From Chrysomallon squamiferum (lineage: Eukaryota; Animalia; Mollusca), in NCBI GenBank assembly GCA_012295275.1, contig CM022678.1, forward strand, positions 18,972,001 through 19,036,000: a DNA stretch of 64,000 nucleotides. The letters run 5' to 3'. Made by a program: the position numbers and the translations under genes. Below the pieces are notes generated by a model, which saw nothing but the letters and a program-made list of their open reading frames with translations, had not been told where the DNA came from and did not search any database. Shown in pieces: positions 13,764 to 52,027 of the stretch; the stretch's first letter is position 1, and each line of letters starts with the position of its first letter.

Positions 13764-14889
13764 GGGAATAACTGGTTACTGATAAAATATGTCTATTAAG
13801 ACAGTAATCAGTTATTTCTTTTTATGTGCAATCCTAAATAAAACAAAAATTGGATTTTGTTGTCTTAAAAACCAAAACAAGGTAGTTTTTAAATAACTTG
13901 TATTTCTTCTTATTACTTTTTCGAATGAAAATGTTTTGAAAATGGTATTTTAAGACCTAAACCAGGAGTTAACTACTAAAGAAGTAACTGTGAACACCAT
14001 GAATGCCTGTGAATGTGTGTCTGTAAATACTTAATTTGTCAAAGTAAACACATAATCATGATGAACTGCTATAATTTTAGTCAGTACTTAAAAATACATT
14101 TATGTAGTCATCATATCTTGCCTCTGTTTACTTAGTTAAAGCTCTTTGTAATGCTGACATTGGTGTTCAGCTAATGTTATTGTTATAATAGGTTGAGTCA
14201 TAAAACAAGTTTACTGAGATAATTAATTACTACAAACCTCTATACTAACCCAAAATACCATAGTTCATGCCTGCTCATTAGTCCTACTGACTAGTAAAAC
14301 TATACTCAGTTATAAAAACGTATTTTTTTTTAAATCTTTCATAATCAATTATTAACAAATGAATTAATAATAACATCAATAATTATAATAACAATAATAG
14401 TTTTAGTTTCACACACATGCATTGTCTCAGACAAATTGTAATCCCACATATATGTACATACAATAGATGACTGTTTTAAAACACTACACACAAGAACATT
14501 GCCTTTCTGTATAGTTATTTTGATTTTCTCACTCAACTTCATTTCATTTTCTTGGTATCTAGTAATTTTGATATTCTTCATATCTAAGTATTTGGATTTC
14601 CTCAGTTAAGAGGAGCTTCTGCAAAAAAAACCCAAAATAACTGATGTAGTAACTGTTTAACACATTTTTTATTAACTGAAATTCTGTGTAGTAAAACGCA
14701 AAATAATTCATCCGTGAAACTAAACGTACCAACAATTTTGTTATGCAAAGACTTCCAATACTGTTTTAGAAAAGAAAATGTTTATGGTATACTTTATGTA
14801 TTTTATTTTATTTTCTAAGTGAAAATTGAATCATGTATTAACAGTACATAAAATTTAAAAACCTCTGTTTTCTTTTGTTCTGTTGACAG

Positions 14890-14970
14890 GACTGAACAAT
14901 TGCATGGTCACTGACAGACAACTGGTTTAACATACAACAGCTAAAATCTAAATATGGGTTAAACAGAGTT
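14890..14970 (+). other. Putative 5' UTR exon of the STAND-ankyrin gene (copy 1 of a duplicated exon)
   Basis: Pyrimidine tract ending ttgacag, donor gtaagtaagt; similar to 15619-15698 (gacagacaactggtttaacatac...atgggttaaac). Confidence 0.45.
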
Positions 14971-15618
14971 GTAAGTAAGTAAACATTTTGAGAGTAATGT
15001 ATTCATGTATGTATGTGATTCTGCTGTCAGTTTTATAATAAACAACAACAAACAGAGGTGAGGAGTATTTCAGTAAATTTTTTATCAATGTGAATTTATA
15101 TCTATTTCTGTGGTTAATCCTAAGTTTGTCTCAAAATGACAGCAGAAATTCAGTCAATATTTTATGAAACATTTTAGTTTTCACCTGGATCAGATACAGA
15201 ATGGTTATATAAATCTGTCTACATCCAGTTTTGATTGTCAAACATGAAATCAGCTAATTTTTTCCAGTAAAAACATAGATGGCGATGTATCTCAATAACT
15301 TTTATACACACATCTAATTTTGTAAAAGTTCATGGCTGTTTATTGCATTACATTTGATTCATATAATTTTATCGTGTAAGCTAACCAGATCTGTATATTG
15401 ATAACAAATAAATAAATACAATTTTATTTTAGTATCACATTTAATCTGTTAATAAATTTTGAGTCTTTGAATAATGGTAGTTATAATCATAATGGGTTTA
15501 TTTTTAATATTAGTAACTAAGTAAGTTTTTTTTAAAGAAAATGTATTACTTGGCAATGTTATTTTAAGAAGCAAGATAAATCAGTATGTATGTTTGTATT
15601 GTTCTATTGACATGATAG

Positions 15619-15698
15619 AAGAGTTGTACAGTGACAAACAACTGGTTCAACATACAGCATCTAATGTCTAAAGATGGGTTAAACTGAACTGAAACAAT
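15619..15698 (+). other. Putative 5' UTR exon (copy 2 of a duplicated exon)
   Basis: Paralogous to 14890-14970 with the same gtaagtaagt donor; contains only very short upstream ORFs (e.g. ATG GGT TAA). Confidence 0.4.
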
Positions 15699-16874
15699 GT
15701 AAGTAAGTAAATGTATTTTTTGTTTAAATTATTTACATTTACACACAAATAGAAGCTGAAACACATGCACATAATATACAACTGGAAAAATGTTTAGCAC
15801 TCTGGTATTAGAAGAGGATTTATTATTATTATTATTTTTTGTCGCACATGGAGCTGGAGAGTTCATAAAGTAATTTAAGGAAATTGTTTTAGAGAGAAAA
15901 TGATAATTCTAATCTCTAGATTACTTCTGTAGTTAAAGAGGTCAATGACAAGTAAACATTCAACCTCCAACATCCAACTCATCCCTCCAGTTAAATGTTG
16001 GATTTGTCAAACTTGTCAACTAATGTCATTCCCAGTGCTAAGCTCATTCCACTTCCATTCTATATAAAATGTCTGATGATACCCAAATGTGATCAAGAGG
16101 TTTCAAAACTGGACTCATGTAATTGCAGTGAAACTGATGTCCTGTAGCTTTAATCTGTTGAATGCATTCCTATTTTCTGTTATATTTGTGTTTCTGATGT
16201 CCACCATTGTGCCAAGTTAACACTGAATGATTTAGTGTGCTAGACACTGTAGTTAAAAATATATATGTAATAAGTGAGCATACTGCAGTTAAGAATAAAA
16301 CAAAATACGCAGAAATGATGCACTGACCTGTCACAGTGAAATCATTTGTAAGTGTCATTCAGAAAGATGAAACATCAGTCTGTTGTTAAATATCACAAAG
16401 TTGTAATTACTTTCGACATGTTGTCACTCATATGTATTTACTCCAGGTGTATATTTGTGACATTTCCATTTGTATCATTTATCTCACGTAATTTACTACA
16501 GTGAGAGTATAAATAAAACTATTCTGGTCTATACATTTATTTTGTTTATATAATTTAATGCAAATGAGAAAACTAATAATATAATTTAGTTGTTACTATT
16601 CTGATAAATACTATGTTTATTACATATAACATTTGGGATCATTATTGGAGTTTATTATTAAAACATATTTTGGATGAATTGATTCTAATAAGATGTAAGA
16701 GAAATTAATAACAACAATATTAAGTTTCAACATTAGCACTATTGTGATAATTATGTTTTCTTGACTATTTTTATGTAACAATCTAACATCACTATTTACA
16801 GAATGAGGACTTTTATTAAAACAATTCTCATTTTATTATTTTAAAATACTTTGTCTGAGCTATTTTCATTTCAG

Positions 16875-16902
16875 CAGTGTTCAACAACCGATACGTGAAA
16901 CT
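16875..16902 (+). other. Putative micro-exon upstream of the first coding exon
   Basis: ttttcatttcag acceptor (NAGNAG) and gtaagc donor. Confidence 0.3.
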
Positions 16903-17116
16903 GTAAGCTCTGTCTCTGGGTAGGTGTAAATGAATTTTCACTTACTGTTAATAAGAAAGAGTAGACTGAAGTGGATTTCTTCTTTTGTTATCTGAATATT
17001 CCTAAACATTATTTCTAACATCATATGAATAAAATGAGTTGAATAAAACATTTCTTTTCTTCCTTCTATATTAAAAAACAGTAATTATATTATATTTTTT
17101 TTACAGTTCAGCCAGT

Positions 17117-17306
17117 ATGGATAACAAAAATGAGAGTTCCGAAATTTGGTCTAACATGACAGCTGCTTCTTCCTCTGACAACATGACAACTGGTTCTTCT
17201 GTAGAGAGATGGATAGCTGATTCTGTCTTAAACAGTATACCTGCATGTCTCACTAACATCACAAACACAGAGCATGACTTACAACCACCTGTGTCAAGCA
17301 GTGAAG
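17117..17306 (+). CDS. Predicted first coding exon of the STAND-ankyrin gene (Ser/Thr/Asn-rich, MDNKNESSEIWSN...)
   Basis: Acceptor ttttacag ends 17106, ATG at 17117, donor GAAG|gtaat after 17306; 190 coding nt gives phase 1, compatible with all downstream exons. Confidence 0.65.
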
Positions 17307-17803
17307 GTAATATGCACAGCCTTTTACTATACTGTTTAGTTTTTTGATAGGGATAGTAATATAAATAGGAATATTGATATAAATATTCAAAACTAGTTTT
17401 ACTTTTTTAATAATAGAATATTTCAATATATTGTTTACTCATGGTAAAAAATTACTATTTACATTTGGAACAAAACACTGTTTCAGTATATTGGTTAGTT
17501 CCATCTTAGGCATTAGTACATTCACACTTTATACATTTATTTTGATAATGAATTAGCGATTTAACGTCTTTATGGTCTTTCTATTTCACAGACGAAAAAT
17601 ACACACTAGAATATGTCTAATTACTTAATGACCATTATAATTATTCTTGTATTTACTGTTATACATTTTAATACTGTAAAGTAATATTTATTTCATAGCA
17701 TCTACACATAATCAGTTAAACACATTTTTAACATATATTGTTATATTTAATAATACTTTTAACAAAAAACAGATTGTATTAATACTATATTTTGTCGTTT
17801 CAG

Positions 17804-17830
17804 ATACAAAAAGTTTTAAACATTATGTTC
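17804..17830 (+). CDS. Possible 27-nt micro-exon (DTKSFKHYV)
   Basis: tttgtcgtttcag acceptor, gtgagt donor, phase 1-1 and open. The following intron is only 42 nt, so it may be skipped or alternative. Confidence 0.4.
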
Positions 17831-17872
17831 GTGAGTTGTAAATTTAGAAAATGTATTTACTCTGTTTCATAG

Positions 17873-17959
17873 GTACTCAAATAATGCAACTTTTGCAGAA
17901 GATAGCAAATATGCCTCACTCTGGTAATGTTCAAATGGGAGACCATAACACTATAATAA
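17873..17959 (+). CDS. 87-nt exon encoding a RHIM-like motif (TQIMQLLQKIANMPHSGNVQMGDHNTII)
   Basis: tctgtttcatag acceptor, A|gtaagt donor, phase 1-1, open frame. VQMG core at 17929-17940 followed by DHN, resembling RHIM cores such as VQVGDNN (RIPK3) and IQIGAYN (RIPK1). Confidence 0.7.
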
Positions 17960-18512
17960 GTAAGTTCAAGAATAAAAATGTATATGTTTTGTTTTTTTCT
18001 CTAGATGTTTGTTTGATAACAGAATACACATGTAACATACTCTGGCTAAAGGAGATGTGTCCAGGTTCTGAGATATGAATATATTTTGCATCCATGTGCC
18101 CATCCTTTCCAATATAATCATGTGTAGACCTTGGACATTGACTAAGTTGTAGCAGTTTCTAATACTGAAGTCAACAAATCATCACAAGAAACACGTTTGT
18201 CAAAAATTCATTAGAAATTCATAAGTAGCCTGCAACAGAATACCCAACCAATAACTTCCTGATCTACTCAGGAATTTTATATCATAGAATTAAAATATAT
18301 TCTTATATTGATTACAGCAGGGTCGGAAATATGAAAAAGTATGTGTCCAGATCATAAGAGGCATGATCAGTGACAGATTAAAAACAGCCCGTAGAAGAAA
18401 TACTTAGTAGAAATATCAATGTTACTATCCATCTTAATTTCATATCATGTTTCAGAGTTACAACTTTTCATTACCATCTCATTATGTGCATGTACACTGA
18501 GATGGTACTGTT

Positions 18513-18516
<4 letters not shown>

Positions 18517-18577
<61 letters not shown>

Positions 18578-18581
18578 ACAG

Positions 18582-18670
<89 letters not shown>
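18517..18670. repeat. Compound (TG)n/(AG)n microsatellite
   Basis: Directly visible. Confidence 0.95.
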
Positions 18671-18673
<3 letters not shown>

Positions 18674-18927
18674 ATTTTTTTGTAAACTTGATATATGTTT
18701 TGTCCTGTTTTGGAACTCGTGATCCTACTGGAAGTGAAGTACACAAGTAAACCCGAATTAACAGGCAAGATGACATCACCAAGCTCACTCAGTAATTGTT
18801 TAGAAGTCATTTTACTGCAGTGCTGATCTTCTAGCAACTATATAGCTCAATTCTACCATGACAAAACATCTTATTTTTCATTAAATAAAACACAGAATAA
18901 TGTTCGCCAGAATACGAAGCCCTCTTG

Positions 18928-20370
18928 TCATACGTGACGTGTCTCAACCAATTTCCAATACCTGGTAGGTACCCAGGCAAAATAGAAGATTCGGAATGCA
19001 TTCAACATTGGCAAGTTCTCTGTCAGTACTTCATATACACATAGCCACCGATGTGCAACTCTTTGGGCAGGCATTATGTAGCTTATTCCAAGAATCAAGC
19101 ATACCTCTTCGAATGACTCGCGTATATCTGGGCTCCACTTAAAATCCGTGTTCAAGTCATCTATCAGACCTTCAACTACATGCCCAAAATGGTCACAGAA
19201 TTTCTGAACACTGTTGTGTATGTGATGACAGATATCACCATCAATGTCACACAGATGGGGAGCCTCTTCTCTCAACAGGGTTTCAAATCCGGCATGTTTT
19301 CCTCTCATATAATTTGTAGAATCTGACAAATTGGATATTAGGTTTGTTAGTTTTCATGAAAAAATCCATATGTTTCTGGGCATTCACAACTGTCATGTCG
19401 TCAAACTCGAAGTGTTTGACTACAGCCTCTTGCCGCGACTCGGAGAAGTAGCTAACTAATATAGAGAGCACCGATTTGTTGTTGTTTGAAAAACATTCAT
19501 CCATGTTCGTCCAAAGGAAACTTTGTTTCAGGTCCTTCACTAGCCTCTTGTCAGACAAAGTACCAAGTCTTTCATGCATCTTACAAGAAATAGTGGTGCG
19601 AGGCATGCATGATAGGGCATCCATTGCCTTTTTATCTGTAGAATTTCTTTAGCATATTCTATCATTTTGGGGACCATGCTCAATAGCAGGGAATTCTGAG
19701 TAAATGACAACATACAGGCCTCCAGGTGAGCTTTCCCATCAATTACACTGACCAAAGGTGCAGGCCTCGGCAGCACTGGATTTGAAATTGCCTTCCACTG
19801 CCAGTTTTGGGGAGCACCATATGGAATTGCAGCACTTTCCTGCCGAATGTCAATGTCCATATCACCTTCTTCCATTGTCTGTGTCGCCCTCATGACAACT
19901 GGAATGTGAGGAGTGTCCTGCCTGGCATTTCGAATGTCAATATGCTTCCGTTTTATTGCATGTGCTTTTAGGTGGGCTTTAGCTTGACATTGCACCACAC
20001 ACAAATTACAAAACCAGGCACGTCAATCTTTCTCAAATACTCTCCAAAGCATTCAGGTCAGCAGTTCGGTCAATTATTTTTGTATGCTATCATAAATTGT
20101 CTACTCACAACGGAATTTCAACAAAAAAATCGCGGAAGTTGCCATTCATGCATGTATGCCATTGTTCACAATGGGCACAGATCCCGCGCACTTACCTCTC
20201 ACGAGATCAGTTAAAATATGGCTGCAGCCATGCATTGCCATGGACGCTGCCATGTTGGTTTGAAGATTGAATTGGTGGTTTGTGCAAAACCCGGATTGGT
20301 CGCAAATCTTGACCATATCCAGAAACAAATCGGGCAAATTAAAAATCCGGAAGATACTCATCTATCTATC
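18928..20370 (-). mobile_element. Decayed hAT-superfamily transposase, N-terminal and catalytic part
   Basis: Frameshifted minus-strand ORFs with motifs NMDEC (first catalytic Asp), MSDSTNYMRG (second Asp), DICHHIHN (CxxH-like) and HRWL, typical of hAT transposases. Confidence 0.78.
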
Positions 20371-21530
20371 ATTATTATTATACCTTGATCTATTTTACTA
20401 TAATTATTACTACCATTAATAAAACTACTGCTGTAGTTTTTGGATCACTATTGTTACTTAGTTATTGTTATTGTTCACATTATTATTACAATTATTATTT
20501 GTATTATTATAATTACTTTTATGACTATTATTATTAACGTGTTTGCAAATGATAATAATGACATATATTGGCTTGTTTAATTTATGTTGAATGATCTTAT
20601 TAAAATAATCTATATAAGAATGACAATATTTATAATGTATGTGTATATGTGTCTTTGTATGTATGTTTCTATGTTGTTCAGGTGTGATAGAAGAGTACTA
20701 ATGACTCCTGTGAAATGTATTATGTTATCTACTGAACAGGTAGTGAAAAGAAAACTTTCAGTTTTTATCTTACCAGTTTTAAATGTTTGTTTTCTTGGTA
20801 CATCATTCTTTTCTTTAGTATTATTTTCATAACATTGGGTTTGTCTCCTAATACAAATTTCTACATAGAGATATAGTTACTTTCACGCAGGCCAATGCTG
20901 TTAATGTGGTGAATGATCGTTTAATTTCAACGATGAACAAACTATCGTTCAGCATAGCACAAAATTTGTGAACCTTCATGTGAACAAAAAGTTGTTTGCA
21001 CAATTTATGCACCCTTGGTAGACGTATATATGTATGTATTATGTCTGTGTTCGCATGTGTTGGTCATAGCATTTGGTGGTAAAATACTAATGATTAATGG
21101 GACATGTAGTTCTGTTATCTATTAAATATGTTTCAATTTTTTATTTACTGGTTTCCACAGCTTCATCTTCTGATACAATATTCCTGTTACTAGATAGATT
21201 TTTATCTGTGCTCATATTTACATTATATTCTACCGCTGGTTGTTGCAGCAAACATAGAAAAATTAATCATTTAAATTTACATCCTACAAGTGTTATTTCT
21301 AAAACTGTCTGTATCTACATGTGGACCATACAGTATTAAAAGTGTGTGTGTTTACATATTTCATCAGCTATTGCTAAAGAAAAAAAATCATTATGAATAA
21401 ATTACCTTGTTTGTTGAACAATTGAGATTTGATATTTATTTTCTATTTTTTAAATCACTGTATCATAAATAGATTTTAATTCAAAACAATTCACATGATA
21501 ACATAATCAAAATGACAATCTTTAGAAGTA

Positions 21531-22050
21531 GTGTCTAAAAACAAAGGTGAGAAAAAATGTCTAGATGCAGAGAATAGCATGTTGGAGTCATCTCATTTGC
21601 GAGTAGATCAAGACCTACCACCAGCAGAAGTTGGTGAAAAGCCTGTTCAGTTAGACCATTGGTGGGTTAAAATGATTGGGAGGTATCCCATATTGGCTAA
21701 AGTAGTCAAGGCATATCTAAGCATTTTTGCAGGACTCCATATTGAACAATCATTTAGTCAGATGAATGACATTGTCAACATGAAGTCAAACTGTTTAGAA
21801 ATGTCCACCCACTCTGCAATGCAGATAGCCTGATATGATCTTTCTGCCAGGCATACCACCTCCATCCAGGCATTCCATCGCGATGACACTCTCAGAACTC
21901 CTGTAGACCAGAGTATGGTTTACCACACTAACACTGATAAGCTTGAACAAGCTAAGCTGGAAACTGAACAAAAATCCAAAAGGCTTAAAACCAGTGAACA
22001 GAAATATAGGTGGTAAAACAACCTTGGTGCACAGAGCTGCTAAACAAATA
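21531..22050 (+). mobile_element. hAT transposase C-terminal dimerisation-domain fragment
   Basis: LDHWWVKMIGRYPILAKVVKAYLSIFAGLHIEQSFSQMN matches the hAT C-terminal pattern WW..YP.L....LS......E..FS; stop at 21833. Confidence 0.75.
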
Positions 22051-22247
22051 AAAAAAACACCATTGATTTAAAGAAAAACAACTCATATTTTCCTAATTTT
22101 TTTTTGTCAGGCCATTCTCATCTATGAATGTTAAATATTAACAGTTCCATGAATAAAGTACAGAGTAATTGCACAGATCACTTTAATATATCTTTTACTC
22201 ACCATTAATAATACAAACTTACCTGTTTTATTTTTGTATTATTTCAG

Positions 22248-22280
22248 CAACGAGTGAAAAACGAGCTTCCAATATCAGAG
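22248..22280 (+). CDS. 33-nt linker micro-exon (TTSEKRASNIR)
   Basis: tattatttcag acceptor, AGAG|gtaatt donor, phase 1-1; its last G joins AG at 22575 to give GAG TCT ACC ATG in the frame of the giant ORF. Confidence 0.65.
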
Positions 22281-22574
22281 GTAATTTTTTATTTTTTTCT
22301 CTCTTCTCAGAAATGTTAATTTATAACAAGATAATCATCTTGTTAATTTTACACCATTTAAAACTGTGACATCTTATTATCTTTGCTCAGTTCTAATGAA
22401 CTAAAATTATGACACAAACTATGTATTGTATTTTTGAGAACGCCCCCCCTAGCTATTTTACATCCAATAACCCGTCATATATATGAATAGTAAAATATGC
22501 TCTAAACAATTAATTATACACAATGTTGTTTTTATTTTTGTATTCTTATTTTTATTTTTTTAAATGTTATACAG

Positions 22575-25500
22575 AGTCTACCATGTCAGTGTTCAACTCT
22601 GTTGACGGAAGTGTCTATGTTGAAACAAGAGCAGAGAAAAAAGGTGTAACGCTTTTGAAAAAGCATGGTGTTGTGATTGTAGTAGGATGCCCAGGTTCAG
22701 GAAAGACAACTCTGGCTTTGAGGATGATGAGGCAGATCGGAACTGAAGAAAAAAGAGAATCTTACTTGATCACGGATCGCTATGACTTCAATGACATTCC
22801 TCTATCGAAAAAAAAGAAGTGTGTTGTTCTCATTGATAATATATTTGGTGAGACTAATCTTGTTTTACCTTTTATGGAGTCATGGAAACTGATATTTCAC
22901 AAGATATGGAATCTTGTCCAGAATGATTCTGTGAAATGTATTATTACTTTAAGAAAACAAATATTTTTAGAAAGTGAAATTCATGTAAAGAAATTTGGTC
23001 TGTTTAATGAAAATCATGTTCTTGATCTGCAAAGTGATGACTCTTGTCTGAATTATGATGAAAAGGAAGAAATTCTAAACAAATATCTCAAAGAAAAGGA
23101 TGTTAAAATGGATGAAACTGATAAAAAGACCGTCATTACCAGTTCGTGTACAGAGTTAGGATTCCCTCAGGTGTGTGTGTTTTATGTTAATTCAAGTGAT
23201 GCACAAAATCGAGGAGTTGAGTTTTTCAAGAAACCTATAGAATATCTCAGACAAGAGCTGGAAAAATTGAAAAATAACGAATATTCACAAATCAATTACC
23301 TAGTTCTATTGTTGATCTTGTTCAAACAAGGTAGTCTCAGCATTGATTCACTGGACCCATATGAAAATGGCCCTGACAGTGACATAATGAAATTAATAAG
23401 AAACCTAGAGCTAGCCTGTCTGAAACAAGAAAACCCAGGTCTAAAAGGTATAGAGAAAGCAGCTGATTTAATGTGTGGTACATATTTGAAGTGTTATGAC
23501 AATAAATACACATTTATTCATCAGTCAGTGTTTGAGTGTTTGTTTCTGATGTTTACATCAGAGTTTCCAAGGAAAGCAGCAGAGTTACTAGAAGTGTGTT
23601 CTGTCTCCATGTTGTTAGAATATGTTGTGACACCTGGAGTATCTAACAAAAGTCACATTACAATGACCGTGAGACCTGATTGCTTTGATAGTCTTGCATG
23701 CAAATTTACTGACTTGCTGGCATCTGATGCCAGAAAAATTATTTCACATCCATCTCTGAAAGATGAAGAATTTCTAGATTACCTCATAAAGGAAAAATAC
23801 TTTTATGGTAGGTTGTCTGAAATACTGCATCAGGGAATATATGAAATAGACTATGTCCAATATCTATTTGAAACTAATGGAAATAGATTCAATTATATAT
23901 CTTTTGTAAATGCACACAGTGCTAATGGAATATTTTGCAGGATTTCATGTCTTCTTGACAATGATTCAAAATTTGACTCTAGTTACGAATGGTATTTGAA
24001 AGTTGACGAAAATTACATAGAGTTATCTTCTGTTACCAGTTTGTGTATTGAGTATGGACTAAGAACATTGTCGAAATATTTCACATCAAATCTGTGTAAA
24101 ATGAAACTAACATATGTGAAAAACAAACTTTTGGTTTTTTCTTGTTTGTTTGGTGATGAAGATGTTGTGAGAATGTTGCTAAATTCAGGTGTTATTCCAA
24201 CATTTGATGTATTCTGTGCAGCTGCTGGTTCTAAAAGAGACAGTACTAGCATACTCAGAGAATTATTCAAGTATAAAAAGGTGGTAAACCTGTTTCTGCG
24301 TTCACAGTTGTTATATATTTCTATTTCTTCAGGTAACATGAACATTGCCTGTCTGTTGGCTGAGATGATAAACAATGAGAAACAAAACAATGAAATCAAG
24401 GAAGAAGCTGTCAAACTGTTATTGGTTAGGTTCCTTAGAAAAGTAAAATTTGAGTTACATGACATATTTATTGTGGAATTCGAGACATATTTTGAAAACT
24501 CAAAGACTATTAAAGCTGTTGATGTAAGCCGTCTACTTAAGAAACTGCTTACTATTGACATAATAAACAAAATTAAAGATATTGCTATCATTGCTGCTTG
24601 TCAGAGTACTTCAGGTCTTATAAAAGAAATAGTAAAACTGAAACCTGAGTGTTTAAATGATGAGAATAGAGATAAAGTACTTATAGCAGCAGCAATATGG
24701 GGTTCTCCTGATACAGTAAATTTTGTCATTGAACACAGATGTAAAAATGCAGATGAAAACAACTGGAAGAAAAGTCAAGTATTGAATGTAGCAGTGATGT
24801 TTAACAGTGTAGATGTTGTTCAGTGTCTTCTTGATAAAGGAGCTGATCCAAATATGAATGTATATGTTAACCAGAAACTGATTCAGTTGTTTGAAGAGGA
24901 AGTTATGTCACAAGACTTCCGTGATGTTTTAATAAAAGTGAAACTCAACATTTGTCCCAAAAATGAATTGATTCAAAACGAAGCTAATTTGAAAATGATG
25001 CCTTCAGACTCGCCCCTCCACATTTCGGTTTTGCGTGGTGACTTAGATATAGTAAAACTACTAATAAAGAGAAATGCTGCTGTTAATGCAGTAAACACTG
25101 AGGGAAAAACTCCACTTCATGAAGCTGTAAAAGCAAAGATACACAGAAAGGAAGTAGCTTTGTTGTTACTGGAAAATGGCGCCCATACTGACATAACAGA
25201 TAAACAAAACAATTCAGTATTGCATATAGCATCTCAAATTGACATAGATGTGATGAAAGAAGTAATAAAAAAGAGTGTTGAAATAAATATAATTAACAAT
25301 CAAGGACAAACTCCTCTACTTTTGTCCTTATGCAATAACAGACCTGAAACAACTTTACATTTACTACAGCATGGAGCTGACCCTAATCTAAAAGATAACT
25401 ATAACAATTCTGCTTTACACCTAGCAGCTGAATACGGAAATTTAGAAATTGTGACTGCACTGACTGAAAAAGGTGTTGATGTAAATAGTAAAAACAGCGA

Positions 25501-28500
25501 CGGTATAACTCCTCTTTTTATGGCTGTTCTGTATGAACAAAACAAAGTAATTTGGTATTTACTGGAACACGGAGCTGATCCTAATTTATCAGCCAATGGT
25601 AACAATTCTGTTTTAGACGTAGCAGTTGAACATGGAAATACGGATATTGTTACAGCACTGATTGAAAAAGGTGTTGATGTAAACATAAAAAACAGTAAAA
25701 ATGAAACTCCACTTACTACAGCTATGAAATGTAAAAATTACAAAGTAGTTTTGTGTTTACTGGAACATGGAGCTGATTCTGATTTAACAAACAATGATTC
25801 CTATTCTGTTTTGCACATAGCAGCTGAACATGGAAATACGGATATTGTGACAGCACTCATTGAAAAAGGTTTTGACGTAAATATTAAAAATAGTCGAGGT
25901 GAAACTCCTGTTTTTACGGCTTATAAATATAAACAGAACAAAGTAGTTTTGTATTTACTGGAACATGGAGCTGATCCTAATTTAACAGACAATGCTGGCA
26001 ATTCCATTTTACACCTTGCAGCTGCAAATGCTAATATAGAAGGTGTGAAAGCACAGATTGGAAACGGTGTTGATGTAAATATTAAAAATAGCCGAGGTGA
26101 AACTCCTCTTTTTACAGCTGTTCTGTGTAAACAGAACAAAGTAGTTTTGTATTTACTGGAACATGGAGCTGATCCTAATTTAACAGACAATGATAACAAT
26201 TGTGTTTTACACCTAGCAGCTGAAAATGCTAATACAGAATGTGTGAAGGCACTGATTGAAAAAGGTGTTCATGTAAATGTTAAAAATAGCCGAGGTGAAA
26301 CTCCTCTTTTTAAAGCTGTTCTGTGTGAACCAAACAAATCTATTTTGTCTTTACTGGAACATGGAGCTGATTCTAATTTAACCGACAATGATAACAATTC
26401 TGGTTTAAACATAAAAGTTAAGGATGAAGAAGATGTAGAATTTGCGAGAACACTGACTGAAAAACGTGGTGATGTAAATATTAAAAACACTCCATCTGAA
26501 ATTCCTCTTTTTACACCTTTTCAGTTTAAACTATTGTTCTCTTTATCAACACGTGAATGTTTGCACAAAGTATTTTTTTATTTACTGGAACATGGAGCTG
26601 ATCCTAATTTAACAGACAATCAAAACAGTTCTGTTTTACACTTAGCAACTACATGTGGAGCTATAAAAATTGTGACATCATTGATTGAAAAAGGTTTTGA
26701 TATAAACACTAAAAACAGCCAAGGTGAAACTCCTCTTTTGACAGCTGTTTCATGTCACCAGAACAAAATAGTTTATTATTTGCTAGAACATGGAGCTGAT
26801 CCTAATTTGAGAGACAAATATAACAATTCTATTTTACACTTTGCAGTTGAAAATGCAAATACAGAAATAATGGCATTGATTGAGAAAGATTTTGATGTAA
26901 ATATAAAAAACAGCCGAGGTGAAACTCCTCTTTTTACATCTGTATCGAAGCGTAATGTTTTGAGGTTTCCAGGACACGAACGTTTGAACAAAATAGTTTT
27001 TTATTTACTGGGAAATGGAGCTGATCCTAGTTTAACAGACAATGATAACAATTCTGTTTTACACCTAGCAGCTGCTCGAGGATATGCTGACATTGTAACA
27101 GCACTGGTAAAAATAGGTATTGATGTAAATATTAAAAACACCCGAGGTGAAACTCCTCTTTTTCAATCTCTAATTTACAGTGAACGGGATCCACGTATGA
27201 TCGAAATAATATATAAAGCAGTTTCGGATATGCTGGAACATGCAGATGATCTTAATTTAAAAGACATTCATAACAATTATTTTTTACACTTAGCAGCCAA
27301 AACAGAACATGCTCTATATCTAAGGGCAATGATTGAAAAAAGTGTTGATGTAAATAGTAAAAACAGCCTAGTTATAATTCATTTTTCTGTAGCTGTTACT
27401 GACAGTACACTTGATCCATGCATGAACGATGAAAACTGTAAACCAGTTTTGTATTTATTGGAACATGGAGCTGATCCTAATTTAACATGTGAGGATGACA
27501 GTTCTGTTTTACACTTAGCAGCTATGAATGGAAATACAGAAATTGTGACTGCACTGATTGAAAAAGGTGTTGATGTAAATTGTAAAAACAGCAAAGGTTT
27601 AACTCCTCTTTTTAATGCTGTTCTGCTCAAACAAAACAAAATTATATTGTATTTACTGGAACATGGAGCTGATATTAATTTAACACTTAATGATGACACT
27701 TCTGTTTTACACGTAGCAGCTGCAAATGGAGGTATAGAAATTGTGACTGCACTGATTGAAAAAGGTGTTGATGTAAATTGTAAAACCAGCGAAGGTTTAA
27801 CTCCTCTTTTTTTTGCAGTTTCCAATAAACAGAACAAAGTATGTTTTTATTTACTGGAACATGGAGCTGATCCTAATTTAACACTCAATTATGACATTTC
27901 TCTTTTATACGTGGCAGCTGCAAATGGAGGTATAGAAATTGTGAGTGCATTGATTGAAAAAGGTGTTGATGTAAATAGTAAAACCAGCAACGGTACAACT
28001 CCTCTCTCTGAAGCTGTTCGGTCTGATCAAAACAAAGTTGTTTTGTATTTACTGGAACATGGAGCTGATCCTAATTTAATAGATAATTATGACATTTCTG
28101 TTTTCGACTTAGCAGTTGCAAATGGAAATATAGAAATTGTGAATGCACTGATTGAAAAAGGTGTTGTTGTAAATAGTAAAAACAGCGAAGATACAAATCC
28201 ACTTTTTAATGCTGTTCACTACAAACAGAACAAACTATCTTTTAATTTACTGGAACATAGAGCTGATCTTAATTTAACACTTAATGATGACAGTTCTGAT
28301 TTACACTTAGCAGCTGAATATGGAAATATAAAAATTGTGAGTGCACTGATTGAAAAAGGTGTTGATGTAAATAGTAAAAACAGCAAAGATATAACTCCTC
28401 TTTTTGCAGCTGTTCGGTCTGATCAAAACACAGTTGTTTTGTATTTACTGGAACATGGAGCTGATCCTAATTTAACACTTAATGATGAAAGTTCTGTTTT

Positions 28501-31500
28501 ACACGTAGCAGCTGCACGTGGAAATATAGAAATTGTGACTGCACTGATTGAAAAAGGTGTTGATGTAAATATTAAAAACAGCGAAGGTATAAATCCTCTT
28601 TTTATTGCTGTTTTCTACAAACAGAACAAAATATGTTTTTATTTACTGAAACACGGAGCTGATCCTAATTTAACACTTAATGATGAAATTTCTGTTTTAC
28701 ACGTAGCAGTTGCACGTGGAAATATAGAAATTGTGAGTGCACTGATTGAAAAAGGTGTTGATGTAAATAGTAAAAACATCGAAGGTATAACTCCTCTCTC
28801 TGCAGCTGTTCTGTCTGAACAAAACAAAGTTGTTTGCTATTTACTGGAACATGGAGCTGATCCTAATTTAACACTTAATGATGAAAGTTCTGTTTTACAC
28901 GTAGCAGTTGCACATGGAAATATAGAAATTGTGAGTGCACTGATTGAAAAAGGTGTTGATGTAAATAGTAAAAACAGCAAAGGTGCAACTCCACTTATTG
29001 CAGCTGTTCGGTATCATCAAAACATAGTTGTTTTGTATTTACTGGAACATGGAGCTGATCCTAAGTTAACACTTAATGATGAAAGTTCTGTTTTACACGT
29101 AGCAGTTGCACGTGGAAATATAGAAATTGTGAGTGCACTGATTGAAAAAGGTGTTGATGTAAATAGTAAAAACATCGAAGGTATAACTCCTCTCTCTGCA
29201 GCTGTTGTGTCTGAACAAAACAAAGTTGTTTGCTATTTACTGGAACATGGAGCTGATCCTAATTTAACACTTAATGATGAAAGTTCTGTTTTACACGTAG
29301 CAGTTGCACATGGAAATATAGAAATTGTGAGTGCACTGATTGAAAAAGGTGTTGATGTAAATAGTAAAAACAGCAAAGATACAACTCCACTTATTGCAGC
29401 TGTTCGGTATGATCAAAACATAGTTGTTTTGTATTTACTGGAACATGGAGCTGATCCTAAGTTAACACTTAATGATGAAAGTTCTGTTTTACACGTAGCA
29501 GTTGCACGTGGAAATATAGAAATTGTGAGTGCACTGATTGAAAAAGGTGTTGATGTAAATAGTAAAAACAGCAAAGGTACAACTCCACTTATTGCAGCTG
29601 TTCTGTCTGATCAAAACATAGTTGTTTTGTATTTACTGGAACATGGAGCTGATCCTAAGTTAACACTTAATGATGAAAGTTCTGTTTTACTCGTAGCAGT
29701 TGCACGTGGAAATATAGAAATTGTGAGTGCACTGATTGAAAAAGGTGTTGATGTAAATAGTAAAAACAGCAAAGGTACAACTCCACTTATTGCAGCTGTT
29801 CTGTCTGATCAAAACATAGTTGTTTTGTATTTACTGGAACATGGAGCTGATCCTAAGTTAACACTTAATGATGAAAGTTCTGTTTTACACGTAGCAGTTG
29901 CACGTGGAAATATAGAAATTGTGAGTGCACTGATTGAAAAAGGTGTTGATGTAAATAGTAAAAACAGCAAAGGTACAACTCCACTTATTGCAGCTGTTCG
30001 ACATGATCAAAACATAGTTGTTTTGTATTTATTGGAACATGGAGCTGATCCTAATTTAACAGACAATGATGACAATTCTGCTTTAAACATAGCAGCTGCA
30101 CATGGAAATATAGATGTTGTGACAGCGCTTATTGAAAAAGGTTTTGATGTAAACAGTAAAAAGAGCAAAGGTACAACTCCACTTATTGCAGCTGTTCGGT
30201 CTGATCAAAACAAAGTTGTTTTGTATTTATTGGAACATGGAGCTGATCCTAATTTAACAGACAATGATGACAATTCTACTTTAAACATAGCAGCTGCACA
30301 TGGAAATATAGACGTTGTGACAGCGCTTATTGAAAAAGGTTTTGATGTAAACAGTAAAAACAGCAAAGGTATAACTCCTCTTTCTCATGCTGTTTTCAGC
30401 AAACATAACAATATATGTTTTTATTTACTGGAACATGGAGCTGATCCTAATTTAAAACTTTATGATGACAATTCTATTTTACACATAGCAGCTGCACGTG
30501 GAAATATGGAAATTGTGACTGCACTGATTGAAAAAGGTGTTGATGTAAATAGTAAAAACAGCAAAGGTACAACTCCACTTATTGCAGCTGTTCTGTCTGA
30601 TCAAAACAAAGTTGTTTTGTATTTATTGGAACATGGAGCTGATTCTAACATAACACATAATGATGACAATTCTGTTTTACACATAGAAGCTGCACGTGGA
30701 AATATGGAAATTGTGACTGCACTGATTGAAAAAGGTGTTGATGTAAATATTAAAAACAGCGAAGGCATAACTCCTCTTTTTGCAGCTTCTTTTTGTAAAC
30801 AGGACAAAGTAGTTTTATGTTTGCTGGAACATGGAGCTGATCCTAACTTAACATGCAATGATCACAATTCCGTTTTACACGTAGCATCTGAACATGGATA
30901 CATAGAAATTGTGACAGCACTGATTGAAAAATGTGTTGATGTAAATATTAAAAACAGCGAAGGTGAAACTTCACTTATTGCAGCTGTTTGGTCTGATCAA
31001 AACAAAGTTGTTTTGTATTTATTGGAACATGGAGCTGATCCTAATTTAACAGACAATGATGACAATTCTGTTTTACACGTAGCAGCTGCACATGGAAATA
31101 TAGATGTTGTGACAGCGCTTATTGAAAAAGGTTTTGATGTAAACAGTAAAAACAGCAAAGGTAAAACTCCACTTATTGCAGCTGTTCGGTCTGATCAAAA
31201 CAAAGTTGTTTTCTATTTACTGGAACATGGAGCTGATCCTAATTTAAAACTTTATGATGACAATTCTGTTTTACACATAGCAGCTGCACGTGGAAATATG
31301 GAAATTGTGACTGCACTGATTGAAAAAGGTGTTGATGTAAATAGTAAAAACAGCAAAGGTACAACTCCACTTATTGCAGCTGTTCTGTCTGATCAAAACA
31401 AAGTTGTTTTGTATTTATTGGAACATGGAGCTGATTCTAACATAACACTTAATGATGACAATTCTGTTTTACACATAGAAGCTGCACGTGGAAATATGGA

Positions 31501-33784
31501 AATTGTGACTGCACTGATTGAAAAAGGTGTTGATGTAAATATTAAAAACAGCGAAGGCATAACTCCTCTTTTTGCAGCTTCTTTTTGTAAACAGGACAAA
31601 GTAGTTTTATGTTTGCTGGAACATGGAGCTGATCCTAACTTAACATGCAATGATCACAATTCCGTTTTACACGTAGCATCTCAACATGGATACATAGAAA
31701 TTGTGACAGCACTGATTGAAAAAGGTGTTGATGTAAATAGTAAAAACAGCAAAGGTACAACTCCACTTATTGCAGCTGTTTGGTCTGATCAAAACAAAGT
31801 TGTTTTGTATTTATTGGAACATGGAACTGATCCTAATTTAACAGACAATGATGACAATTCTGCTTTAAACATAGCAGCTGTAACTGGAAATATGGAAATT
31901 GTGACAGCACTGATTGAAAAAGGTGTTCATGTAAATAGTAAAAACAGCGAAGGTATAACTCCTCTTTCTGTAGCTGTTGTGTCTGAACAAAACAAAGTTG
32001 TTTTCTATTTACTGGAACATGGAGCTGATACTAATTTAACTAATGATCGTGACTGTTCTGTTTTACTCTTAGCAGCTGCAATTGGAAATATTGAACTTGT
32101 GACAGCACTGATTGAAAAAGGTGTTGATGTAAATATTAAAAACAGCGAAGGTATAACTCCTCTTTTTGAAGCTGTTCTGTCTGAGCAAAACAAATTTGTT
32201 TTCTATTTACTGGAACATGGAGCTGATCCTAATTTAAAACTTAATGATGACAATTCTGTTTTGCACGTAGCAGCTGCACATGGAAATATAGATGTTGTGA
32301 CAGCGCTTATTGAAAAAGGTGTTGATGTAAATGGTAGAAACAGCGACGGTACAACTCCTCTTTTTGCAGCTCTTTTTAACAGTAAAGTTGATCCATGTCT
32401 AAAGGATGAAAAATGTAAAGTAATTTTGTATTTACTTGAACATGGAGCTGATCCTAATTTAACACGTAATGATGACAATTCTGTTTTACATTTAGCAGCT
32501 GCACGTGGAAATATAGAAATTGTGACTGCACTGATTGGAAAAGGTGTTGATGTAAATAGTAAAAACAGCGAAGGTATAACTCCTCTTTTTGCAGCTTCTT
32601 TTTGTAAACAGGACAAAGTAGTTTTATCTTTGCTGGAACATGGAGCTGATCCTAACTTAACACGCAATGATCACAATTCCGTTTTAAACGTAGCATCTGA
32701 ACATGGAAACATAGAAATTGTGACAGCACTCATTGAAAAATGTGTTGATGTAAATATTAAAAACAGCGAAGGTGAAACTTCACTTTTTACAGCCTCGCTC
32801 TATGGACAGAACAAAGTAGTGTTGTGTTTACTTGAACATGGAGCTGATCCTAATTTAACACGTAATGATGACAATTCTGTTTTACACGTAGCAGCTGCAC
32901 GTGGAAATATAGAAATTGTGACTGCACTGATTGAAAAATGTGTTGATGTAAATAGTAAAAACAGCAAAGGTAGAACTCCTCTTTTTGAAGCTGTTCTGTC
33001 TGAACAAAACAAAGTTGTTTTCTATTTACTGGAACATGGAGCTGATCCTAATTTAAAACTTAATGATGACAATTCTGTTTTACACATATCAGCTGCACAT
33101 GGAAATATAGATGTTGTGACAGCGCTTATTGAAAAAGATGTGTATGTAAATAGTAGAAACAGCGACGGTACAACTCCTCTTTTTGCAGCTCTTTTTAACA
33201 GTAAAGTTGATCCATGTCTAAAGGATGAAAAATGTAAAGTAATTTTGTATTTACTTGAACATGGAGCTGATCCTAATTTAACACGTAATGATGACAATTC
33301 TGTTTTACATTTAGCAGCTGCACGTGGAAATATGGAAATTGTGACTGCACTGATTGAAAAAGGTGTTGATGTAAATATTAAAAACAGCGAAGGTATAACT
33401 CCTCTTTTTGCAGCTTCTTTTTGTAAACAGGACAAAGTAGTTTTATGTTTGCTGGAACATGGAGCTGATCCTAACTTAACATGCAATGATCACAATTCCG
33501 TTTTACACGTAGCATCTAAACATGGATACATAGAAATTGTGACAGCACTGATTGAAAAAGGTGTTGATGTAAATATTAAAAACAGCGAAGGTGAAACTTC
33601 ACTTTTTACAGCCTCGCTCTATGGACAGAACAAAGTAGTGTTGTGTTTACTAGAACATGGAGCTGATCCTAATTTAGCACGTAATGATCATAATTCTGTT
33701 TTATACGTAGCATCTGAACATGGAAACATGGAAATTGTGACTGCACTGATTGAAAAAGGTGTTGATGTAAATAGTAGAAACTAG
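22575..33784 (+). CDS. Main coding exon of a giant STAND (nSTAND3-like) NTPase-ankyrin repeat NLR-like protein
   Basis: Uninterrupted ORF (track 22523..33784, 3753 aa). The first ~17 residues of the track ORF are a T-rich acceptor ending tatacag at 22574. Walker A GCPGSGKT, Walker B CVVLIDNIFG, GxP-like LGFPQVC, winged-helix YTFIHQSVFE, then ankyrin repeats (TPL..A / LLEHGADPN / LIEKGVDVN) to the stop. Confidence 0.93.
22640..23560 (+). other. nSTAND3-like P-loop NTPase with helical and winged-helix region
   Basis: VVIVVGCPGSGKTTLAL (Walker A codons 22685-22708), VVLIDNIFG (~22822-22850), IITLR sensor strand, LGFP and FIHQSVFE. This motif order matches animal nSTAND3-ankyrin proteins; assigned by eye, no HMM run. 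Confidence 0.82.
24770..33784 (+). repeat. Coding ankyrin array, ~42 tandem 198-bp (66-aa, two-ankyrin) units plus several divergent N-terminal repeats
   Basis: gaacatggagctgatcct-type motif recurs at 198-bp spacing (25565, 25763, 25961 ... 33455, 33653), with a few 225/231-bp insertion-bearing units. Confidence 0.95.
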
Positions 33785-34586
33785 GTGAAACTCCTCTTTT
33801 GACAGGTGATGAATATGGAAATATAGAAATTGTGACTGCACTGAGTGAAAAGGGTGTTGATGTAAATATTAAAAACAGCTCTTGTGTTCAGATAATTTTG
33901 TATTTTCTGGATCATTGAGCTGATCCTGATTGAATAGCCAATGATAACAATTCTTTTTTTAAACCTAGCAGCTGAACAAGCAAATATGGAATTGTGATAG
34001 CACTGATTGAAAAAGGTGTTGATGTAAATATTAAAAATAACCATGGTATAACTCCTCTTTTTGCAGCTCTTACTAACAGTAAACTCCCCTTTTTACACCT
34101 TCTTTCTGAAGACATAACAAAGTAGTTTTTATTTAATGGAACATGGAGCTGATCCTAATTTTACACTGAATGATGGTAATTCAATTTTACACATAGCATC
34201 TGAACATGGAAATATAGAAACTGTGACTGCACTCATTGAAAAAGGTGTTGATGTAAATAGTAAAAACAGCAGAGGTGAAATTCCTGTTTTTACAGCTGTT
34301 CTGCATAACCAAAGTAGTTTTGTATTTACTAGAAAATGGAGCTGAACCTAATTTGTCATGCAATGAAAACAATTCGGTTTTACACCTAGCAGCTGAACAG
34401 GGTAATACGGAAATTGTGACAGCACTGATTGAAAAATGTGTTGATGTAAATGTTCTTAATTCCAGTGGTGAAACTGCTCATGATAGAGCTAAGAGTTGCA
34501 GATTTCCTCTTATCGAACAGGATACTTTTTTATATTTACTGGATCATGGTGCTAATATTCTAACAGATCAATACATTTTGATATAA
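33785..34586 (+). pseudogene. Degenerate ankyrin units and original C-terminal cap beyond the stop codon
   Basis: Same repeat continues with deletions, frameshifts and stops; track fragments 34136..34345 and 34275..34586 end in a divergent capping repeat ETAHDRA...LLDHGANILTDQYILI*. Confidence 0.8.
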
Positions 34587-35009
34587 AAAAACTGAACTTT
34601 TCAAGCTACACAGACTCACTTTTTTAAGATTATCTGGTGAGAATATTTCAAAATTAAGCAAAAATTATATTTCAGTATGAATTTGATGTTCATTATAAAC
34701 AGAAAACATGTTTGGAAAAAAATCTTAATTTTCTGCTTCATCCTGAAATACTTCCTCATGTAGCTCTATTTTGAACTGATTCCTTTGTGCTTATTTGTAA
34801 TGTAATTTTATTTAGTGTTAAGTAATATGTACGGTTTTAACTTTTCAGTTCAAAAGCCACAACACATTTTCAAAATAAAATTTGTGAAAAAAGTGCATTG
34901 TGATGAAGAATTAAAGTCAGTGTACGACAATGCCGTCTAGTATGTGGTATATCTAGACACTGTAAATTGTTTCTATTCAGTTAGTAATTACTGCACTGTG
35001 CATCTGCTG

Positions 35010-39899: not shown

Positions 39900-41636
39900 A
39901 GATATACAAATGACAACACTGTTAGTAATGTTAGTATAAAACTATAAGTTATTGAAGATATAAAAACAACAACACTATTGGTAATGTTAGTATAAAATTT
40001 TAAATAAGTGAATATATCAAAACAACACTATTAGTAATGTTATTATAAAACTATAAGTAAGAGATAAAAAAAACACTATTAGTAATGTTCTTAAGTAAAG
40101 ATGTAAAAAACAAAAACACTATAGTAATGTTATTAAATAAAAATATAAAAAGCAACAACACTATTACTAATGTTATTAAGTGAAGATGTAAAACTAATAA
40201 CACTTTTAATAATGTTATTAAGTAAAAATGTAAAAACAATAACACCATTAGTAACGTTTTAAGTAAAAATGTAAAAAACAATAACACTAGTAGTAACGTT
40301 ATTAAGTAAAAATGTAAAACCAATAAAACTAGTAGTCATGTTATTAAGTGAAGATGTAAAAATAATAACACTATTAGTAACGTTATTAAGTAAAAATGTA
40401 AAAGCAATAATAACACTATTAGTAATGTTATTAAGTAAAAATGTAAAAACAATAACGCTATTAGTAATGTTATTAAGTGAAGATGTAAAAAAAGAATAAC
40501 ACTATTAGTAATGTTATTAATTGAAGATGTAGAAAGCAATAACACAGTAATGTTATTAAGTGAAGATGTAAAAAGCAATAACAATATTAGTAATGTTATT
40601 AAGTAAATATGTAAAAAGCAATAAAACTATTAGTAATGTTATTAAGTGAAGATGTAAAAATAATAACACTATTAGTAACGTTATTAAGTAAAAATGTAAA
40701 AGCAATAACACTATTAGTAATGTTATTAAGTAAAGATGTAAAAAGCAATAACGCTATTAGTAATGTTATTAAGTAAAAATGTAAAACCAATAAAACTAGT
40801 AGTCATGTTATTAAGTGAAGATGTAAAAATAATAACACTATTAGTAACGTTATTAAGTAAAAATGTAAAAGCAATAATAACACTATTAGTAATGTTATTA
40901 AGTAAAAATGTAAAAACAATAACGCTATTAGTAATGTTATTAAGTGAAGATGTAAAAAAAGAATAACACTATTAGTAATGTTATTAATTGAAGATGTAGA
41001 AAGCAATAACACAGTAATGTTATTAAGTGAAGATGTAAAAAGCAATAACAATATTAGTAATGTTATTAAGTAAATATGTAAAAAGCAATAAAACTATTAG
41101 TAATGTTATTAAGTGAAGATGTAAAAATAATAACACTATTAGTAACGTTATTAAGTAAAAATGTAAAAGCAATAACACTATTAGTAATGTTATTAAGTAA
41201 AGATGTAAAAAGCAATAACGCTATTAGTAATGTTATTAAGTAAAAATGTAAAAACAATAACACTATTAGTAATGTTATTAAGTGAAGATGTAAAAAGCAA
41301 TAACAATATTAGTAATGTTATTAAGTAAAGATGTATAAAGCAATAACACTATTAGTAATGTTATTAAGTGAAGATGTAAAAGTAACAACACTATTAGTAA
41401 TGTTATTAAGTAAAGATGTAAAAAGCAATAACACTATTAGTAATGTTATTAAGTAAAAATGTAAAAACAGTAACGCTATTAGTAATGTTATTCAGTAAAA
41501 ATGTAAAAACAATAACACTATTAGTAACGTTATTAAGTAAAAATGCAAAAGCAATGACACTATTAGTAATGTTATTAAGTGAAGATGCAAAAATAACAAC
41601 ACTATTAGTAATGTTATTAAGTAAAGATGTAAAAAG
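39900..41636. repeat. Minisatellite, ~38-40-bp unit (aataacactattagtaatgttattaagtRaaRatgtaaaaRc)
   Basis: About 45 tandem units, more degenerate at the left; includes a near-exact 467-bp higher-order duplication (40336-40584 vs 40803-41051 give identical translations). Confidence 0.95.
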
Positions 41637-51367: not shown

Positions 51368-52027
51368 GATGACAGCAAGTAAAAAGTAAATTAGGAAGGC
51401 CTCACGATCAGACTGATCTCGATTTTCACACAAAATATATTTGTTTAAATTTAATATTTTTAATTTTAATATTTAAAGCTACTTATCGAGTTCTGTCAGA
51501 AAACCTCCAATATAGAATTAGTAATTTGATAGTAAAATGGACTATGACCGGGCATGATAACTTACAGAGCACGTAGACATGATAAGGAGGTGTTGTCGTG
51601 AATGTGTTTATATTGTTGTCATGCGACGCGGTTATACATACCTTATAGAGATAGTTTATCTACATTTTCTGGGTAGACTGTTTGAATTTCAACGAGGAAA
51701 GCAGTCACCTGATTTATATAGCATTGAAAAAATAGAGCTATCGTAGTTTTCGACTGTTCGTTTGAGCTTAAGGACCATCAACTGAGAATGTGTAAGTTTG
51801 ATTTAAAATCTGTTATTACGATAAGGAGATATTTTTTGTTTTTATTTTTTTTCAATAACTTTAAGTAATACGTTTTAGTAACTACATTTTTTTTTCGCCG
51901 ACATTTCTTCAGTAACATGCAATTACTTATATTTTATAAGAAAAATCGAACTTCATATTTTTAGAAAGAATATTTTTCTCGGTGAACTTTCCTTCACCAA
52001 CTTAACAACTAACATTTTATTTTTCAG

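Follow-up and report, generated by a model that had tools for sequence, protein, structure and literature searches.

A predicted RHIM-like peptide encoded by small exons ahead of an nSTAND3-ankyrin protein in a mollusc

The subject of this report is a gene on the plus strand of a 64,000-nucleotide (nt) stretch of Chrysomallon squamiferum DNA (contig CM022678.1, positions 18,972,001 to 19,036,000; hereafter the window, in whose own coordinates all positions are given), which encodes a predicted nSTAND3-ankyrin protein and whose small 5' exons would place a short RHIM-like peptide ahead of the NTPase module. Joined from the sequence, exons of 190 (17117-17306), 27, 87 and 33 nt and a long last exon (Table 1) give one open reading frame of 3839 amino acids (aa), or of 3848 aa if the 27-nt exon is included, with GT donors closing the first four exons, AG acceptors opening the last four, and all junctions in phase 1. 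The 87-nt exon translates to GNVQMGDHNTII. In these respects the five-exon model of the original prediction was reproduced, in its internal coordinates, its GT-AG borders, its phase and both product lengths. Its 5' border, on the other hand, has to be moved, since position 17117 is the first in-frame ATG and not an exon edge, the likely acceptor of the first coding exon lying at 17107.

Table 1. Features of the nSTAND3-ankyrin gene in window coordinates
Feature	Position	Strand	Remarks
Candidate small upstream exon	14890-14970	+	AG/GT borders; probably untranslated; duplicated, with about 76% identity to 15599-15706
Candidate small upstream exon, duplicate copy	15609-15698 (start approximate)	+	GTAAGT donor at 15698; blastn similarity; segment about 15590-15712
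Candidate small exon	16875-16919	+	Spliced to the 17107 acceptor, gives an open frame that lacks a Met
First coding exon	17107-17306	+	Ser/Thr-rich; no notable Pfam family; GC 0.41 vs 0.23 in the following intron
27-nt candidate exon	17804-17830	+	Splice-score rank 5/268; GC 0.19, intron-like
87-nt exon	17873-17959	+	Possible amphipathic stretch, then RHIM-like peptide; splice-score rank 1/268
RHIM-length window	17905-17955	+	-8 to +8 around the Val at 17929; VQMG core, Asn +6, Ile +8; Ala -8, Met -6, Pro -5
33-nt exon	22248-22280	+	Start of a conserved helix before the NTPase; splice-score rank 2/268, homologue-profile rank 3/160
Last coding exon, 11.2 kb	22575-33784	+	NTPase module, helical region, ankyrin array, stop
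nSTAND3 NTPase (PF20720)	22616-23092	+	E 5.1e-24, 85 bits vs cut-off 27; residues 12-170 of the last-exon product
Ankyrin array	24968-33781	+	42 units by count, most being 198 bp long with two repeats each
Decayed ankyrin repeats, about 0.8 kb	33785-34590	+	Past the stop at 33784; several frame changes and stops

Because of the acceptor at 17107 and the small exon candidates further upstream, the true N-terminus of the protein need not be at 17117. In particular, the protein could start upstream of that ATG by way of the candidate exon 16875-16919. Still further upstream, the segments 14870-14985 and 15590-15712 (+) are about 76% identical by blastn, with a GTAAGT donor in each, and these duplicated exon-like pieces are probably 5' untranslated exons of the same gene. 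As for the 27-nt and 87-nt exons, their joint use is doubtful, since the intron between them would measure only 42 nt, and the former is possibly an alternative to the latter. Were that so, there would be an isoform without the RHIM-like tag.

The last exon alone forms a 3756-codon stop-to-stop frame, and the nSTAND3-plus-ankyrin architecture that had been proposed for it is borne out by a PF20720 score far above the Pfam cut-off and by the long repeat array. Walker A (GCPGSGKT, 22685-22708) and a Walker B strand with its conserved Asp fall in invariant columns of the homologue alignment, while the ankyrin repeats recognised by Pfam begin at about residue 796 of the last-exon product. In other words, the features of an nSTAND3 STAND receptor are present, namely a Walker A/B NTPase and C-terminal superstructure-forming repeats. 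By Pfam this is not a canonical NLR with NACHT or NB-ARC, the NACHT match of the NTPase region being 21.6 bits, below the cut-off and limited to the P-loop. Structural comparison added little: the AlphaFold model of the NTPase region is of low confidence (predicted local distance difference test, pLDDT, 52.8) and its fold search gave weak P-loop/AAA+ matches only, a sequence search of the PDB with the same region found nothing below E 0.19, and the 60 matches shown for a PDB search with alignment A1 were all ankyrin proteins. The array was once longer, since decayed ankyrin repeats continue beyond the stop at 33784, and this tail shows a recent shortening of the sensor. The contrast between the intact 11.2-kb frame and the decayed 0.8-kb tail suggests that selection still acts on the coding part.

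RHIM likeness was scored at eight positions, namely apolar residues at -8, -6, 0 and +2, the Gln and Gly of the core, the Asn, and an apolar residue two places after the Asn, with Met counted as apolar by our own choice and with the positions taken from part of bioRxiv 10.64898/2026.02.19.706818 and from PMC4262963. The peptide of the 87-nt exon satisfies seven of the eight, a score equalled by one in 5000 shuffles of the 105-residue N-terminus, and the Asn-x-apolar signature after the core is there as Asn(+6) and Ile(+8). Across 151 family proteins (164,593 residues) scores of at least 7/8 occur at two places, and across the six frames of the window (127,996 residues) at three; among all of these only the exon peptide has a Gln-apolar-Gly core. 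Moreover, the pattern [IVL]Q[IVLCMF]GxxN has a single match in the six frames of the window, which lies inside the top-ranked exon (0.05 expected per 10.5 kb, from 300 resamplings); that said, all these motif statistics somewhat overstate the surprise, because the motif was already known when the tests were designed. A natural variant of the tetrad, VQFG, functions in RIPK3, according to passages of PMC12119088. A sequence search of the PDB with the exon peptide returned no match, and in the Atlas search its matches reached 0.79 or less.

What speaks for the small exons themselves are their splice signals and the homologues. By a crude splice score of our own, devised after the sequence was in view and applied to the 268 open phase-1 candidate exons between 12000 and 22600, the 87-nt and 33-nt exons head the list and the 27-nt exon stands fifth. 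Homologues have a conserved helix directly ahead of the NTPase, and the 33-nt exon supplies its start: on a profile of this helix built from 32 of 77 homologue rows, it ranks third among 160 GT-ended open stretches and scores -0.4, as against -11.0 for the unspliced DNA. Contigs from RNA libraries (three runs of one study), compared over 20600-25340, number 413, 542 and 572 and are mostly 80-95% alike, which points to many paralogues in their source organism. Their summed depth is 0-1.6 in the last intron bin versus 205-449 in the first exon bin, and in a run of unknown kind the depth likewise rises, from 147 to 1405. This hints that the nSTAND3-ankyrin family is transcribed, bearing in mind that DNA can occur in such libraries. 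A search of sequencing runs listed no RNA run as carrying the window, and a single run, whose kind is not given, shared 0.37 of the window's words. Finally, the earlier claim that no folded effector is visible before the NTPase held up, as 63 plus-strand frames of at least 40 aa gave no death-fold, TIR or caspase match in Pfam, and HEPN, Death, DED and caspase queries derived from the family matched none of 351 frames of at least 20 aa in region 1-22574. A weak HEPN-like match at 4645-4896 (E 0.005) was not confirmed by the family HEPN profile and was treated as chance.

The family to which the protein belongs is a large one. Homologues at E<=0.001 form 970 clusters, 19 of the 20 looked up being from named molluscs, and the records include Gigantopelta, Haliotis, scallops, Solemya and unionids; two metagenome scans found no relative, and a search for long-protein homologues found none. 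The nearest named proteins, from the snail Gigantopelta aegis, are 41-44% identical over the NTPase region, the nearest homologues as a whole spanning 41-46%, and a quick tree built from 72 NTPase modules places the protein of the window together with six from Gigantopelta (Shimodaira-Hasegawa-like approximate likelihood ratio test, SH-aLRT, 99). These six have no recognised folded N-terminal domain, and carry short segments that look RHIM-like by eye. Among 18 scanned relatives, which were chosen by eye, four have a folded domain ahead of the NTPase; elsewhere in the family there is a short low-complexity leader in that place. The domains in this slot, by Pfam, are a caspase (P0016, E 2e-50), Death (P0051, 7e-7), DED (P0139, 3e-5, under the cut-off) and HEPN_DZIP3 (P0069, 4e-24), and their presence fits a signalling function for whatever peptide occupies the same place in other members. 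In P0016, which is from Haliotis rufescens, the caspase is fused before the whole nSTAND3-ankyrin unit, and P0133 shows by eye a PARP-like stretch ahead of its NTPase.

RHIM-like or related segments were picked out by eye in seven Gigantopelta leaders, including P0008 with Leu(-8), Val(-6) and a VQFG core. From core to Walker A the distance is 60, 64, 65, 73, 75, 96 and 162 residues in the six Gigantopelta kin and P0040, and 58 in the window protein. No candidate came from a search for proteins sharing the P0008 motif. A de novo search of 71 N-termini returned a loose Val/Ile/Thr/Asn/Gly-rich motif with a log-likelihood of 252 versus 170-202 in four shuffles run with fewer seeds, and such a family motif is no more than suggestive. 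Eight proteins of an abalone-containing clade (P0014, P0024, P0025, P0028, P0029, P0030, P0033 and P0035) have other short leaders, rich in the same residues, whose core is not RHIM-like; it is possible that these are further signalling tags.

Taken together, these results make it likely that the gene product is an immune receptor inside the cell and belongs to a mollusc nSTAND3-ankyrin family that has expanded. The small 5' exons of this gene are predicted to add a divergent RHIM-like peptide at the place taken in relatives by a caspase, Death, DED or HEPN domain. Provided that the small exons are spliced as modelled, the ankyrin array would hold the NTPase off until a ligand binds, by analogy with further STAND receptors such as Avs5, a bacterial protein that also has nSTAND3, whereupon the NTPase would oligomerise and the N-terminal tails would crowd together. 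We propose release and oligomerisation because they are established STAND behaviour and have a parallel in Avs5. The crowded VQMGDHN cores could then form a cross-beta stack, in which the first strand of a canonical RHIM is probably lacking, and this putative seed might recruit another protein whose own motif is compatible, for example a RIPK1-like kinase of molluscs, a caspase or a death-fold adaptor, leading putatively to NF-kB activation or cell death. A RIPK1-like kinase is a possible type of partner by analogy with the zebra mussel, whose RIPK1 bears a RHIM needed for full NF-kB activation, according to the relevant part of PMC12119088. For this reading as a whole, in which a ligand-released nSTAND3 oligomer seeds an amyloid-type signal through the core to a separate effector or adaptor, our own estimate of the probability is about 0.48, that is, slightly below even. 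A broader version, in which molluscs run a large fungus-like repertoire of amyloid-signalling receptors on an Avs5-type nSTAND3 chassis, with fast-diverging RHIM-like or otherwise beta-stacking tags on small exons and caspase, Death, DED and HEPN effectors replacing one another across the family, we hold to be doubtful at this stage.

A number of results weigh against an amyloid role for the peptide. With Met at its third place, VQMG departs from the strict core (V/I)Q(V/I/L/C)G, and instead of the aliphatic residues at -8 and -6 and a proline-free first strand there are Ala(-8), Met(-6) and Pro(-5). According to parts of bioRxiv 10.64898/2026.02.19.706818, mutagenesis finds the residues at -8, -6, 0 and +2 essential and a proline at any RHIM position lowers nucleation, and since Ala(-8) and Pro(-5) fall precisely where a RHIM needs its first strand, that strand is spoiled. 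The Pfam RHIM scan, which the original prediction had proposed as a check, gave no match for the 28-aa exon product (0 families at E<=10, the query being short), for 15 homologue N-termini or for 18 whole homologues, in runs that had no positive control. VQMG, whose absence from homologues had been named in advance as telling against the idea, is indeed absent from those examined, namely from the 75 of 150 that have at least 40 residues before the match, the core-plus-Asn pattern occurring in one of the 75; it should be added that even the nearest of them share less than half of the NTPase residues. None of 71 homologue N-termini reaches 7/8, and the eight that reach 6 compare with 4.5 +/- 1.9 in shuffles, which is not significant. 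At p<=0.05 a profile of the seven leaders does recognise eight of 64 held-out N-termini and none of 64 internal controls (rank test p 0.0012; 13/64 versus 1/64 at p<=0.1), with the bivalve P0108 (VEIG) and P0094 on top, but its training motifs were chosen by eye, several of the held-out matches are close kin, a run with one wrong anchor gave 7/64 versus 4/64, and the window motif itself scores -0.2 on it. The Atlas search gave no usable match for residues 84-122 of P0108. Unlike in fungal and bacterial pairs, no second match to the motif was found in the neighbouring genes of the 64-kb window. Lastly, the 22280/22575 joint was not among the 15 listed of 86 joints in the RNA contigs, a comparison confined to 20600-25340 and from which 22524-22567 fell out; by itself this result tells neither for nor against the junction. 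Consequently, of the RHIM-nSTAND3-ankyrin amyloid receptor first proposed, the nSTAND3 and ankyrin parts, the exon model and a RHIM-like core with its C-terminal half survive, while canonical RHIM identity and conservation of VQMG in the homologues examined do not. Judging by its residues, the peptide is outside the canonical RHIM family, and it may nonetheless work in a RHIM-like way through the core and the C-terminal strand. Across the family a conserved RHIM is not supported, and a variable beta-prone tag in the slot ahead of the NTPase is weakly supported.

Much of the above would also be expected if the gene model were right and the peptide, as part of a disordered leader that evolves fast, resembled a RHIM only through degeneration or by chance. 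The receptor would then signal by another route, be it a helper STAND paralogue that has a caspase or death fold, the surface of the NTPase or the short helix that precedes the motif. Paralogues with built-in effectors do exist, and the substitutions at -8, -5 and +2, the missing VQMG, the low profile score and the lack of overall enrichment of the eight-position score all fit such an explanation, which we take to be a serious possibility, if not a probable one. What it leaves to coincidence is that so rare a match is found in the small exon with the highest score, and that it is as far from Walker A as the RHIM-like segments of the nearest relatives. Would the conclusions change if the 5' model were wrong or incomplete? 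The 87-nt exon might be skipped, for instance in favour of the 27-nt exon, the protein might start nearer to the NTPase exon, or an unrecognised folded effector might lie upstream. The junction missing from the listed RNA-contig joints, the 42-nt gap and the upstream candidates that leave the frame open are all compatible with this, as is the fact that 75 of 150 homologue records start less than 40 residues before the NTPase match, although many of these may be incomplete models. Nevertheless, the strong splice signals, the micro-exon that completes a conserved helix and the lack of an effector-like frame in 1-22574 make an error of this kind rather unlikely. Least likely, in our judgement, is that the gene is a decaying copy within a birth-and-death family, or that its product is an ankyrin scaffold without an immune function, the motif having no current role. 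The premature-looking stop with its decayed repeat tail, the frameshifted TPR genes close by and the many paralogue-like contigs could be read in that way, but the 11.2-kb open frame with its intact Walker A, the STAND-plus-repeat layout and the immune effector domains of relatives argue against it.

The preferred reading, that of a receptor with an amyloid-type tag, is not without precedent in animals. In amphioxus, many RHIM proteins are known in which the RHIM replaces death-fold domains, and one of them, BF82280, has an NWD2-like layout (Kajava et al. 2014, PMC4262963). Since that paper names this layout, the concept is already published, and the idea of an animal counterpart of NWD2 is new only in its mollusc nSTAND3-ankyrin version. 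Like BF82280, the window protein would be an animal STAND protein with an N-terminal RHIM-like motif in the place of a death fold, the comparison with NWD2 having been drawn there; unlike it, it has nSTAND3 instead of NACHT, comes from a mollusc and not a chordate, and carries a motif that Pfam misses, while that of BF82280 was picked up with a RHIM profile. As in systems of the NWD2/HET-S type, the predicted exon model has a short motif standing in for a folded N-terminal effector. The fungal NLRs (NWD2/HET-S, and PNT1/HELLP with the PP motif) and the bacterial BASS3 NLRs share with our case the order of short N-terminal motif, STAND NTPase and C-terminal repeats (in theirs WD, TPR or ANK). 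They differ in that their matching effector gene adjoins, while none was found in the window, in that they use NACHT or NB-ARC and not nSTAND3, and in that the present protein is known from sequence alone. RHIM, PP and BASS3 motifs have in common a G-apolar-Q-apolar-G core, as described in part of that literature, and here Asn, not Gly, precedes the core.

Among proteins with the same NTPase class, the bacterial anti-phage Avs5 (Sir2-nSTAND3-TPR; bioRxiv 10.1101/2025.07.08.663546) likewise has nSTAND3 between an effector and a repeat sensor and needs nucleotide binding for its function, its effector being an enzymatic Sir2 and its sensor of TPR type. The other mollusc nSTAND3-ankyrin proteins, which are uncharacterised records, have the same NTPase and repeats; the window protein stands out for its exceptionally long array and for the best RHIM-position score in comparison with 71 N-termini. 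With RIPK1, RIPK3, ZBP1, TRIF and the insect cRHIM proteins it shares a VQxG-like core, Asn at +6, an apolar residue at +8 and disordered flanks, but none of those is a STAND receptor, and their first strand is aliphatic at -8 and -6 and free of proline. We found no report of RHIM-like motifs on mollusc nSTAND3-ankyrin or STAND-ankyrin proteins in full-text literature, a search outside which most subscription journals lie, and the same goes for passages of PMC13506858, PMC12881547, PMC7889193, bioRxiv 2020.01.06.895854, PMC8195603, PMC12261475, PMC7885112 and PMC9835746. The term nSTAND3 was found in five papers, and the four of them that were listed are, judging by their titles, on bacteria, fungi or a mosquito virus. 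What is possibly new here, then, is the different NTPase class, phylum and sensor relative to the amphioxus case, together with a possible family-wide set of tags.

That STAND receptors signal through amyloids is proven for fungi and has support for bacteria, and for animals the literature that we found holds one sequence observation, that in amphioxus. Whether animals have signalling amyloids beyond the canonical RHIM is a question posed in a passage of PMC7889193; the present family bears on whether the RHIM is their only one, and a family-wide tag repertoire, if true, would extend animal signalling amyloids past it. A mollusc family with a tag and folded effectors in one and the same slot would offer peptides that are directly testable in existing nucleation and prion-reporter assays. 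Moreover, a tag encoded by small exons would be overlooked by annotation based on open reading frames.

Several minor features complete the window. The long intron of the gene contains a decayed piece of a hAT transposon at 21540-21830 (+; Dimer_Tnp_hAT, E 7e-8), within a transposase-like remnant at 21540-22000 (+), and a transposase-like remnant at 18928-20022 (-) that has no Pfam match. Downstream lie three tandem paralogous TPR-repeat genes (44966-47241, 52006-54149 and 59335-61484, +), each split into at least two frames, in which the RHIM-like pattern was not found; their C-terminal part, which we take to be TIR-like by resemblance to TTC22, gave no TIR match in Pfam or the PDB. Between the ankyrin gene and these genes, an AT-rich minisatellite with a 42-bp unit extends over 40024-41635 in about 38 copies.

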